Source: Escherichia coli
GTDB lineage: Bacteria > Pseudomonadota > Gammaproteobacteria > Enterobacterales > Enterobacteriaceae
DNA: 64,000 bases
NCBI RefSeq assembly: GCF_003334815.1
Contig: NZ_QOWO01000003.1
Reading direction: 5' to 3' (one strand)
How positions within the stretch are numbered: position 1 is the first letter of the stretch; each line of letters opens with the position of its first letter. The notes beneath the pieces are model-generated. The model was not told where the DNA came from. It saw only the letters and a list, made by a program, of their open reading frames with translations, and did not search any database. The position numbers were made by a program, and so were the translations under genes. Shown in pieces: positions 62,053-64,000 of this stretch.

Positions 62053-62481
62053 CAAACAATTCCTCTGAAAAGAGCCGATGCCCTGGACAGCGCGGCGTTG
62101 TTCACGGGAGGCGTGGTACACTCTGGCTATCGCGGGGCTTGCAGAACACAAAAATGAAACACTCTGTTTGTTTCATTAATTTTGTGAACTATATCACAAT
62201 TGATTGTTTGTTAGCCATATTAGGCCGTGACTTTTATTGCTGTACAGATTATGTGGTTTTTCAGTGGCATTAAGGGCATATCTTCCCGCCGCCTCTGCAT
62301 TCCTGTAGGAAATTAATTTTGAATATCAATGAATTATTTTCATCCAGGTGACGATTAGAAAGGTATCAATTTCAAATCAGGCAAAAGTGCTATTTATACC
62401 GTAAGATTTATCTAAAGACGTCGGTACCCAGGGTTTTCACCTTGCAATGGCCGGGTATAAACAGGCAGGAAATTGATAGCA

Positions 62482-64000
62482 ATGAGTCATCGTGCACGAC
62501 ACCAATTACTGGCGTTGCCGGGCATTATCTTTTTAGTTCTCTTTCCCATCATTCTTTCGCTATGGATTGCCTTCCTTTGGGCAAAATCAGAAGTGAATAA
62601 TCAGCTCCGAACCTTTGCTCAACTGGCACTGGATAAATCCGAGCTGGTCATTCGCCAGGCAGATTTAGTGAGCGATGCAGCTGAACGCTATCAGGGGCAA
62701 GTTTGCACTCCAGCCCATCAAAAGCGAATGTTGAATATTATTCGTGGCTATCTTTATATTAATGAATTGATCTATGCCCGTGATAACCATTTTTTATGCT
62801 CATCGCTGATAGCGCCTGTAAACGGCTATACGATTGCACCGGCCGATTATAAGCGTGAACCTAACGTTTCTATCTATTATTACCGCGATACGCCTTTTTT
62901 CTCTGGCTATAAAATGACCTATATGCAGCGGGGAAATTATGTGGCGGTTATCAACCCTCTCTTCTGGAGTGAAGTGATGTCTGATGACCCGACATTGCAA
63001 TGGGGTGTGTATGATACGGTGACGAAAACCTTTTTCTCGTTAAGCAAAGAGGCCTCGGCAGCAACGTTTTCTCCGCTGATTCATTTGAAGGATTTAACCG
63101 TACAAAGAAATGGCTATTTATATGCGACAGTTTATTCGACAAAACGCCCAATTGCAGCCATTGTTGCGACTTCATATCAACGTCTTATAACCCATTTTTA
63201 TAATCATCTTATTTTTGCGTTGCCCGCCGGTATTTTGGGGAGTCTTGTTCTGCTATTACTCTGGCTACGTATTCGACAAAACTATTTATCTCCCAAACGT
63301 AAATTGCAACGCGCCCTCGAAAAACATCAACTTTGTCTTTATTACCAGCCAATAATCGATATCAAAACAGAAAAATGTATCGGCGCTGAAGCGTTGTTAC
63401 GTTGGCCTGGTGAGCAGGGGCAAATAATGAATCCGGCAGAGTTTATTCCGCTGGCAGAAAAGGAGGGGATGATAGAACAGATAACTGATTATGTTATTGA
63501 TAATGTCTTCCGCGATCTGGGCGATTACCTGGCAACACATGCAGATCGCTATGTTTCTATTAACCTGTCGGCCTCCGATTTTCATACGTCACGGTTGATA
63601 GCGCGAATCAATCAGAAAACAGAGCAATACGCGGTGCGTCCGCAGCAAATTAAATTTGAAGTGACTGAGCATGCATTTCTTGATGTTGACAAAATGACGC
63701 CGATTATTCTGGCTTTCCGCCAGGCAGGTTACGAAGTGGCAATTGATGATTTTGGTATTGGCTACTCTAACTTGCATAACCTTAAATCATTGAATGTCGA
63801 TATTTTGAAAATCGACAAATCGTTTGTTGAAACGCTGACCACCCACAAAACCAGTCATTTGATTGCGGAACACATCATCGAGCTGGCGCACAGCCTGGGG
63901 TTAAAAACGATCGCTGAAGGCGTCGAAACTGAGGAGCAGGTTAACTGGCTGCGCAAACGCGGCGTGCGCTATTGCCAGGGATGGTTCTTTGCGAAGGCGA
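62482..64000 (+). CDS. pdeC: Cyclic-di-GMP phosphodiesterase PdeC (YjcC), partial (3' end beyond the window)
   Basis: ATG at 62482 gives [31 protein letters not shown]..., then a periplasmic sensor region, a second TM segment and the start of an EAL domain (...[28 protein letters not shown]...); the frame is open to the window end. Confidence 0.88.

Follow-up and report, generated by a model that had tools for sequence, protein, structure and literature searches.

The 64,000-nucleotide stretch of Escherichia coli DNA analyzed here (the window) ends inside an open reading frame that is preceded by several hundred base pairs of non-coding DNA. The locus raises the questions of which gene is cut by the window edge, what the periplasmic domain of its product responds to, and what the DNA in front of it contains.

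Identity and architecture of the truncated gene

Positions 61700-64000 were found to be 100% identical over 2301 nt to the genome of E. coli K-12 MG1655. This 2301-nt query spans yjcB, the intergenic DNA and the greater part of the truncated gene, and every one of the 5426 complete E. coli genomes contained a match to it. The frame opens with ATG at 62482 and extends to a last full codon ending at 63999, a total of 506 codons with zero stops. In the K-12 RefSeq annotation the identical coding sequence is pdeC (yjcC, b4061), encoding 528 residues and ending 68 nt past the window edge; the K-12 record carries the frame through 22 more codons (507-528) to a normal stop. Since these 22 codons and the stop are beyond the window edge, we infer from the K-12 identity that pdeC is intact in the source genome. 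The upstream neighbors in the window (uvrA, ssb and yjcB) agree with the K-12 order uvrA-ssb-yjcB-pdeC-soxS-soxR, of which soxS and soxR fall beyond the window, and both sequence identity and upstream synteny mark the gene as the orthologue of K-12 pdeC. A search of NCBIfam returned no PdeC-specific model at cut-off, other equivalog models matching through their EAL portions only; PRK10551 aligned with residues 241-518 only and scored 179 bits, its cut-off being 461.

The initial annotation had named the gene as a pdeC (yjcC) sensor-EAL phosphodiesterase truncated by the window edge, and this was confirmed by the K-12 identity, the RefSeq record, the Pfam CSS-motif and EAL matches, and the 506 codons without a stop. 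Its explanation for the absence of pdeC from the list of open reading frames was also correct, since the frame runs off the window. The region is almost certainly the 5' 96% of the known K-12 pdeC gene plus 429 bp of divergent intergenic DNA shared with yjcB, with PdeC a disulfide-switched c-di-GMP phosphodiesterase. Nothing in the evidence contradicts the identification of pdeC, which is an already known feature, a named and biochemically characterized K-12 gene. The encoded protein is ordered as a first transmembrane segment (TM1), a periplasmic CSS domain, a second transmembrane segment (TM2) and a cytoplasmic EAL domain, with the following features.

62482..64000, + strand: pdeC (yjcC, b4061), first 506 of its 528 codons, truncated by the window edge (K-12 identity, RefSeq annotation)
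62509..62583, + strand: TM1, about residues 10-34 (hydropathy, AF2 helix)
62596..63210, + strand: periplasmic CSS-motif domain, residues 39-243 (Pfam PF12792; dCache-like fold predicted)
62704..62706, + strand: Cys75 codon (TGC), disulfide partner (invariant in 26 homologues; C75A data, PMC5897775)
62797..62805, + strand: Cys106-Ser-Ser, the CSS motif (C106 invariant in 26 homologues; C106A data, PMC5897775)
63208..63276, + strand: TM2, about residues 243-265 (hydropathy; AF2 helix, residues 232-269)
63298..63996, + strand: cytoplasmic EAL domain, residues 273-505 (Pfam PF00563, E=3.6e-71)

The 19-residue Kyte-Doolittle mean exceeded 1.6 in windows starting at residues 5-18, within a helix that is unbroken from residue 2 to residue 68 in the AF2 model, and the hydropathy peaks for TM2 were in 19-residue windows starting at residues 240-247. 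Hydropathy and the AF2 model together place the CSS domain between two transmembrane segments. The catalytic motifs by which EAL enzymes are recognized all lie inside the window (EAL303, SINLS359 (N), EVTE393, DDFG422, KID443, EGVE479 and QG499), and EAL domains in the PDB matched PdeC by sequence at up to E=3.9e-46. TM2 is described in the published work on PdeC as the dimerization element needed for EAL activity (PMC5897775).

The cysteine switch and predicted fold of the periplasmic domain

The sensor, taken as residues 40-250, had been described as without a recognizable motif and its input as not deducible from sequence; neither description held. Residues 39-243 matched the Pfam CSS-motif family PF12792 with E=2.9e-52, covering positions 2-209 of the 209 in the model, the domain contains both C106-S-S and C75, and its input has been published as a thiol/disulfide switch in the periplasm (PMC5897775). 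In an alignment of 26 diverse homologues (17-47% identity) C75 and C106 were the sole invariant columns, and the alignment revealed no conserved pocket residues or motif.

Herbst et al. (2018, EMBO J; PMC5897775) reported that a cysteine disulfide dependent on DsbA/DsbB keeps the phosphodiesterase activity low, and that reduced PdeC is active and open to processing by DegP/DegQ. Activation was obtained with C75A and with C106A ('ASS'), either mutation or the removal of DsbA/DsbB being sufficient, and the redox control was recapitulated in nanodiscs (PMC5897775); the mechanism has since been reviewed (PMC8846402). According to these experiments, DsbA/DsbB form the Cys75-Cys106 disulfide in the CSS domain when the periplasm is oxidizing, holding EAL activity low. 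Under reducing conditions, such as those of deep biofilm layers, free-thiol PdeC is highly active as a dimer mediated by TM2, and is processed by DegP/DegQ to a TM2+EAL fragment, which is active and later degraded. The outcome is a decrease in the biofilm signal c-di-GMP and in the curli and cellulose matrix.

The initial annotation had proposed a check of the periplasmic domain for a CSS-motif or Cache-type fold; the first was matched in Pfam, and the second is predicted. In the AF2 model (pLDDT 90.4, pTM 0.83) a long stalk helix at the N terminus leads into two PAS-like alpha/beta modules in tandem, the dCache layout, and a double-Cache (tandem PAS-like) fold is predicted for the CSS domain with high confidence. 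Judged by secondary-structure position, C75 begins helix alpha2, and C106 lies on strand two of the membrane-distal module. These positions in the predicted fold suggest that the C75-C106 disulfide staples the membrane-distal module and that reduction would loosen it, leading to exposure to proteases.

Profile searches of the 26 CSS sequences with the Cache families of Pfam (dCache_1/2/3 and sCache) gave zero matches even at E<=0.1, the Pfam matches of these sequences being to CSS-motif only, plus CSS_CxxC in five of them. CSS-motif may already belong to the Cache clan of Pfam. When the periplasmic domain by itself was searched by sequence against the PDB, nothing matched at E<=10, so that no solved CSS-domain structure is detectable by sequence. 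No stated link between CSS and Cache domains was found in a search of the literature, and the founding Cache paper does not mention CSS (PMC4822843). The dCache sensor domains 3lif, 3lic, PctA (9koo), DctB (2zbb/3by9) and TlpC (5wbf) are only 4-12% identical in sequence to the CSS domain. The CSS family differs from them in that the input known for it is a disulfide switch and not a small-molecule ligand, and in that two cysteines are its sole invariant residues.

Most dCache domains are small-molecule receptors, and the CSS domain could likewise be mainly a receptor whose real input is a ligand in the distal pocket, the disulfide being structural or secondary. This is unlikely, since the only residues invariant in the 26 homologues are the two cysteines instead of a pocket motif, since Cache-family models do not match the domain, and since cysteine mutation or loss of DsbA/DsbB is enough for activation and redox control persists in nanodiscs (PMC5897775). 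The disulfide switch is the preferred reading of the input. A ligand acting in addition to the switch is a separate matter. Since a dCache fold is predicted, the membrane-distal module might also bind, as a trigger beyond bulk oxidation by DsbA/DsbB, a periplasmic small molecule that gates formation or reduction of the C75-C106 disulfide, a speculative proposal to which we give only a slim chance.

The yjcB-pdeC intergenic region and the history of the locus

The initial annotation had drawn attention to about 320 bp of AT-rich non-coding DNA at 62160-62480. The low GC content of that sub-range was reproduced (37.4%); the true gap is longer, 62053-62481, and its AT-richness is unexceptional. 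Positions 14001-64000 of the window contain 38 intergenic gaps that reach 30 bp or more, with a median GC content of 43.8%; of these, 14 are lower in GC than the whole gap and seven are lower than 62160-62480; the candidate explanation of an exceptionally AT-rich gap was rejected, the GC content being typical of the other 37. The gap is on the long side, with three of the 38 longer, and is also long (429-1020 bp) in orthologous loci. The region is not simply DNA upstream of pdeC, as had been supposed, since its left third contains the start site, promoter, CRP box and marbox of yjcB. Its features are as follows.

61771..62052, - strand: yjcB, 93-residue small membrane protein, divergent from pdeC (RefSeq annotation of the identical K-12 sequence)
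62053..62481, no strand: divergent yjcB-pdeC intergenic region, 429 bp, 41.5% GC (K-12 annotation, GC count)
62180, - strand: primary transcription start site of yjcB (PMC12987492 Table 1, NC_000913.3 position 4275169)
62183..62198, no strand: perfect palindromic CRP core TGTGAACTATATCACA (pattern TGTGA-N6-TCACA)
62188-62196, - strand: extended -10 element of yjcB, TGaTATAGT (read from the sequence)
62226..62240, - strand: MarA ChIP-seq site, marbox GCAATAAAAGTCACG, assigned to yjcB<>yjcC (PMC5684230 Table 1)
62241..62481, + strand: pdeC-proximal upstream region, presumed sigma-S promoter and 5' UTR (conservation; sigma-S control from PMC5897775 and PMC3720812)

Published coordinates were transferred by subtracting 4212989 from the NC_000913.3 position, and the start site at 62180 gives yjcB a 5' UTR of 128 nt. 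An open reading frame of 126 residues beginning with TTG and reaching 62151 was considered as yjcB and rejected in favor of the 93-residue ATG frame of the K-12 annotation. A yjcB orthologue in an independently found locus (L004) matched the Pfam family YjcB (PF15940), while YjcB had no match in NCBIfam.

The pattern TGTGA-N6-TCACA occurs once in the 64-kb window, where 0.07 matches are expected. The center of this core is at -10.5 relative to the yjcB start site, overlapping the -10 region. The yjcB region was among the top CRP predictions of PhyloScan (PMC1794230), and deletion of crp was reported to raise yjcB mRNA in a transcriptome and by qPCR (PMC13339887). Since the extended -10 element sits within the perfect box, CRP is probably a repressor of yjcB, a role indicated by the geometry of the predicted box and by that one transcriptome and qPCR report. 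A single exact copy of the marbox GCAATAAAAGTCACG is present in the window, spanning -46 to -60 relative to the yjcB start site, and is only about 69% conserved in other Escherichia species; yjcB has also been reported as a SoxS ChIP-exo target. Positions 62053-62240 would constitute the control region of yjcB, with the start site at 62180, a -10 element within the CRP box and a MarA/SoxS site just upstream.

The CRP box is identical in locus L004 and is present in 19 other Enterobacteriaceae species, although among these 19 genomes the conservation is by construction since they were selected by a search for the box itself; L004 and a report on Klebsiella are the only independent cases. In all 21 loci compared, with pdeC present or absent, the box is 52-139 bp from the yjcB ATG. 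By the comparative sequence data, the putative CRP box and the MarA/SoxS site are assigned to yjcB, not to pdeC.

In six of the 21 loci soxS is found in place of pdeC: three of Buttiauxella, one each of Entomohabitans and Intestinirhabdus, and that of Escherichia sp. MOD1-EC7003. The absence of pdeC between the yjcB box and soxS in the first three genera would be expected if horizontal transfer had placed pdeC and its AT-rich upstream DNA between yjcB and soxS as an insertion silenced by H-NS, as would the GC content of pdeC (44.2%), which is low against the mean for coding sequences in the window (51.8%) and against its neighbors yjcB (52.5%) and ssb (58.1%). Such an origin is nevertheless very unlikely. 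At least 80% of the 2301-nt query is covered in one place in 5419 of the 5426 complete E. coli genomes, the order yjcB-pdeC-soxS-soxR is kept in Escherichia, Enterobacter, Superficieibacter, Cedecea and Mangrovibacter, protein identity declines as in vertical descent (from 85-88% to about 60% and then about 52%), and the flanks of the gene are without mobile-element features. Escherichia sp. MOD1-EC7003 retains a remnant of the pdeC C-terminus, indicating that the absence of the gene there is due to deletion.

The remainder of the gap faces pdeC. Identity across Escherichia species is 65% for 62241-62330 versus 84-86% for blocks in 62331-62481, and pdeC has been placed under sigma-S control (PMC5897775; PMC3720812). 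The interval 62241-62481 is presumed to hold the sigma-S-dependent promoter and leader of pdeC. A sigma-70 consensus scan of 61600-62700 gave no promoter within the gap at the scan threshold, its matches being no commoner than in shuffled sequence, and did not place the pdeC promoter; no start-site data for pdeC were found in the literature. Two other candidates were discarded. A sub-threshold Rfam match to Phe_leader at 61736-61825 (27.7 bits against a gathering threshold of 55, E=0.095) falls on the ssb/yjcB terminator hairpin and was judged to be chance, and a small gene in the gap was rejected on the grounds that the candidate frames begin with TTG and cross stretches that are indel-bearing or divergent among Escherichia species. 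It is scarcely credible that a small RNA, a small protein or a cis-regulatory leader of pdeC lies unannotated in the gap, for although the gap is 429 bp long, is well conserved in the 150 bp next to pdeC, keeps short blocks such as TTTAT-CCGTAAG in other genera and contains mechanical open reading frames at 62139-62273 (44 residues) and 62442-62600 (52 residues), an Rfam scan of 60800-64000 at E<=1 matched no family within it, a terminator scan of 61600-62700 detected no terminator-like site in its sequence, RefSeq annotates nothing there, and the level of conservation fits a promoter and 5' UTR. As part of the same overall explanation, and with the same near certainty, the intergenic DNA is considered ordinary regulatory DNA in two halves, 62053-62240 serving yjcB and 62241-62481 presumably pdeC.

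Related systems and implications

K-12 PdeC is the prototype of the CSS-domain c-di-GMP phosphodiesterases (PMC5897775) and the window gene is the same gene, with TM1, CSS, TM2 and EAL segments, C75, C106 and EAL motifs all alike and zero differences in the visible part. E. coli K-12 has five such enzymes, among them PdeB, for which redox and proteolytic control have also been shown (PMC5897775); YcgG is another (PMC10459773). The domain architecture of these other enzymes is common with PdeC, whereas the sensor domain is only distantly related. In a library of representatives at 50% identity, full-length CSS homologues that do not belong to the group of PdeC orthologues were 19-29% identical to the query.

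YjcC of Klebsiella pneumoniae (Huang et al. 2013, PMC3720812) is a PdeC orthologue adjoining soxRS with an active EAL domain, and its expression depends on RpoS and SoxRS. It has paraquat-induction and virulence phenotypes, whereas none were found described for E. coli pdeC. A TGTGA-N6-TCACA box also lies upstream of the Klebsiella gene, about 400 bp from the start codon compared with 291 bp here. The authors named it an "Fnr box"; its sequence is that of the CRP consensus. Since deletion of the region containing the box lowered yjcC reporter activity in Klebsiella and abolished induction by paraquat (PMC3720812), the box region may, by analogy, also influence pdeC.

The locus has little value as a discovery, pdeC being already characterized and the upstream region being ordinary regulatory DNA. 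The assignment of the CRP box and MarA/SoxS site to yjcB matters for the reading of yjcB and pdeC regulation, including that of the "Fnr box" of Klebsiella yjcC. For the CSS sensor family, of which a sequence search of the PDB detects no solved structure, the dCache fold class is predicted with confidence. If the CSS domain does bind a ligand in addition, PdeC-type enzymes would be combined ligand-and-redox sensors. The dCache prediction frames the question of what the widespread CSS phosphodiesterases sense besides the bulk redox state of the periplasm.

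The pdeC reading frame and the conserved cysteines of its product

At the right edge of the window a frame beginning with ATG at 62482 is free of stop codons for 506 codons, to 63999. The sequence 61700-64000 is 100% identical to that of E. coli K-12 MG1655, in which the CDS is annotated as pdeC (yjcC, b4061) encoding 528 aa, ends 68 nt beyond the window and has soxS and soxR next in order. Only 9 positions differ between 14001-64000 and one MG1655 record; therefore, K-12 or one of its very close relatives is the source of the window. The identity and the RefSeq CDS name confirm the initial annotation, which named the gene pdeC, described it as truncated by the window edge and attributed its absence from the mechanical ORF list to the lack of a stop codon before the frame runs off the window. 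The gene encodes PdeC itself and not a PdeC relative. All defining features of PdeC testable from sequence were found, the last 22 codons falling beyond the window, and the biochemical features were published for this same protein (PMC5897775). Of the 5426 complete E. coli genomes searched with 61700-64000 every one gave a match, with at least 80% of the query covered in one place in 5419. In some E. coli (NZ_CP162161.1, NZ_AP021946.1, NZ_LS992171.1) IS1A or IS903B lies inside the yjcB-pdeC stretch and pdeC is annotated as two pieces. The GC content of pdeC (62482-64000) is 44.2%, versus a window CDS mean of 51.8% and 52-58% for the adjoining yjcB, ssb and uvrA. Elsewhere in the window GC content is also low in yjbS (55820-56023, 28%) and in the frameshifted DUF2713 (47332-48317, 34%) and SopA-family (37714-39294, 33%) genes.

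Features of the PdeC protein
residues 39-243: CSS-motif domain PF12792 (Pfam, E=2.9e-52, full model length)
residues 273-505: EAL domain PF00563 (Pfam, E=3.6e-71)
residues ~10-34 and 243-265: two hydrophobic segments, either side of the CSS domain
EAL303, SINLS359, EVTE393, DDFG422, KID443, EGVE479, QG499: complete set of EAL catalytic motifs, all within the window

The periplasmic domain (residues 40-250) had been thought to contain no recognisable motif, a reading that is wrong because the Pfam CSS-motif is matched and the cysteines are present, C106 in the context NHFLC106SSLIAP and its partner C75. Residues 1-270 were searched against 1.84 billion representative proteins and 25 diverse full-length homologues (17-47% identity) were aligned with the query. 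C75 and C106 are the only invariant columns in this alignment of 26 sequences, all of which matched the CSS-motif family (26/26). A further Pfam family, CSS_CxxC (PF20982), was matched by 5/26 sequences at E<=0.1 (E<=0.001 for two), which indicates at the level of sequence a related sub-family with another cysteine pattern.

Predicted fold and redox control of the CSS domain

A PDB sequence search with the periplasmic domain matched zero chains even at E<=10, and the solved relatives found by PDB sequence search comprise the EAL domain only. An AlphaFold2 model of residues 1-270 based on the alignment of 26 sequences was obtained with a mean pLDDT of 90.4 and pTM of 0.83, showing a long helix (2-68), a helix (77-88), six strands (95-157), then a second alpha/beta module (160-231) and, last, a return helix (232-269). 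From this order of elements the CSS domain is predicted to be dCache-like, and the confident model supports the earlier suggestion of a Cache-type fold. None of the 26 sequences matched the Pfam Cache families; the CSS domain is classed here by its predicted dCache fold and not as a proven member of a Cache sequence family. Pfam may already place CSS-motif in its Cache clan, and the fold prediction is a small addition that is possibly implicit in that assignment. CSS goes unmentioned in the founding paper on Cache (PMC4822843).

PdeC is the model CSS-domain phosphodiesterase of Herbst et al. 2018, in which formation of the C75-C106 disulfide, promoted by DsbA/DsbB, was found to lower phosphodiesterase activity whereas the C75A variant, the C106A variant and the free-thiol form were highly active; dimerisation needed for activity is mediated by TM2, and purified PdeC placed in nanodiscs again showed redox control (PMC5897775). 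A 2022 review lists PdeC among periplasmic redox sensors (PMC8846402). Thus, the signal is known as far as a thiol/disulfide switch, and the initial annotation's reading of an unknown ligand is wrong. A small-molecule ligand has not been described. Within the membrane-distal module of the model, C75 directly precedes helix 77-88 and C106 belongs to strand 103-107. Judging from these positions, the disulfide would staple the module and its reduction would loosen it, which would fit the reported protease sensitivity of PdeC. It is unlikely that the dCache-like domain also binds a small-molecule ligand gating the disulfide switch, an arrangement of moderate interest if true.

The yjcB-pdeC intergenic region

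Features of the yjcB side
61771-62052, minus strand: yjcB, 93-aa ATG ORF
62183-62198: perfect CRP core TGTGAACTATATCACA, the sole match in the 64 kb window versus 0.07 expected
62226-62240, minus strand: marbox gcaataaaagtcacg, -46 to -60 relative to the start site of yjcB

Since yjcB occupies 61771-62052, the gap between it and pdeC spans 62053-62481 (429 bp). An AT-rich non-coding stretch of ~320 bp had been proposed at 62160-62480; the stretch is real and non-coding, but its bounds are those of the whole gap and its base composition is ordinary. The GC content is 41.5% for the gap and 37.4% for 62160-62480. The 38 intergenic gaps within 14001-64000 that reach 30 bp or more have a median of 43.8%, with 14 gaps below 41.5% and 7 below 37.4%, indicating a normal E. 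coli intergenic level of AT-richness. The length is somewhat above average (3/38 gaps are longer).

Nor is the whole stretch simply upstream of pdeC, as had been supposed, the left part carrying the yjcB start site, the CRP box and the MarA site. The published primary yjcB start site, NC_000913.3 4275169 on the minus strand (PMC12987492), corresponds by the established coordinate offset to window position 62180, minus strand. An extended -10 element, TGaTATAGT (minus strand), at -16 to -8 lies within the CRP box centred at -10.5, a geometry that predicts repression of yjcB by CRP. A 2026 study reported that yjcB mRNA increased on crp deletion (PMC13339887), and PhyloScan ranked the yjcB region among its best CRP predictions (PMC1794230). 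The results suggest that yjcB, encoding a small membrane protein, is repressed by CRP. The marbox is the MarA ChIP-seq site gcaataaaagtcacg assigned to yjcB<>yjcC, and yjcB is reported to be a SoxS ChIP-exo target (PMC5684230); conservation of the marbox in other Escherichia species is only ~69%. Ascribing both the CRP box and the Mar/Sox site to yjcB clarifies the picture modestly, and neither this nor the dCache prediction would be unexpected to a specialist.

On the other side of yjcB, the ssb-yjcB gap (61673-61770) contains a 10-bp GC-rich hairpin with T-runs on both sides (61741-61765), which probably terminates transcription of ssb and yjcB, two convergent genes, in both directions. The Rfam Phe_leader match on this hairpin is below threshold (E=0.095) and probably due to chance. 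This gap has been described as integration hotspot 39, occupied in some E. coli by a defence island of 18 kb (Detocs + dGTPase) (PMC11728103).

The other 241 bp of the gap (62241-62481) precede pdeC alone. Identity across Escherichia species is 84-86% for 62331-62481 versus 65% for 62241-62330, and short blocks, such as TTTAT-CCGTAAG, are kept in other genera, a pattern that would be expected of a promoter and 5' UTR. A consensus scan of the gap found no sigma-70-type site, the presumed sigma-S-dependent pdeC promoter could not be placed and no start-site data for pdeC were found. Nothing points to a hidden gene or RNA, there being no Rfam match (E<=1) or annotation in the gap and the small TTG ORFs spanning divergent or indel-bearing stretches.

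The CRP box and gene order in other genomes

The contig (L004) encoding P0004, a PdeC homologue with 45% identity across the N-terminal part used as query and 53% full-length (tblastn), has the yjcB-pdeC-soxS-soxR order of E. coli; the 16-bp box is unchanged there in a gap of 521 bp that has diverged elsewhere. A scan with TTGTGAACTATATCACAWTTG of 100,044 species, each represented by a single genome, returned 20 loci, 19 in Enterobacteriaceae and one on a "Flavobacterium" contig. The latter (L015; NZ_JAUFQN010000013.1, 9.5 kb, labelled Flavobacterium paronense CECT 8460) carries ssb, yjcB and pdeC residues 1-184, all 100% identical in protein sequence to those of E. coli; farther on, pdeC seems to be frameshifted. 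The contig is presumably E. coli contamination of the assembly. In every locus 52-139 bp lie between the box and the start codon of yjcB, and the box stands next to yjcB in at least 19 Enterobacteriaceae species, whether or not pdeC is present. The distance to pdeC is 292-701 bp in Escherichia, Superficieibacter, Cedecea and Enterobacter, and ~2.3 kb in Mangrovibacter (L011:2924-5210; L013) versus ~290 bp in Escherichia. Therefore, the box travels with yjcB and not with pdeC.

The sequence called an Fnr box in K. pneumoniae is the CRP consensus. It was so named in a study of K. pneumoniae yjcC, where reporter activity fell and induction by paraquat was lost once the box-containing region had been removed (PMC3720812). 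By analogy with this reporter result, the CRP/Mar/Sox sites may be partly shared with pdeC.

In three Buttiauxella species, Entomohabitans and Intestinirhabdus (L014, L017, L020, L022, L024) pdeC is absent and soxS follows the box at 91-247 bp, and in Escherichia sp. MOD1-EC7003 (L021:3357-3523) only the last 28 pdeC codons are left, a deletion scar. Thus, pdeC is dispensable and variably present in the family, though nearly universal in E. coli.
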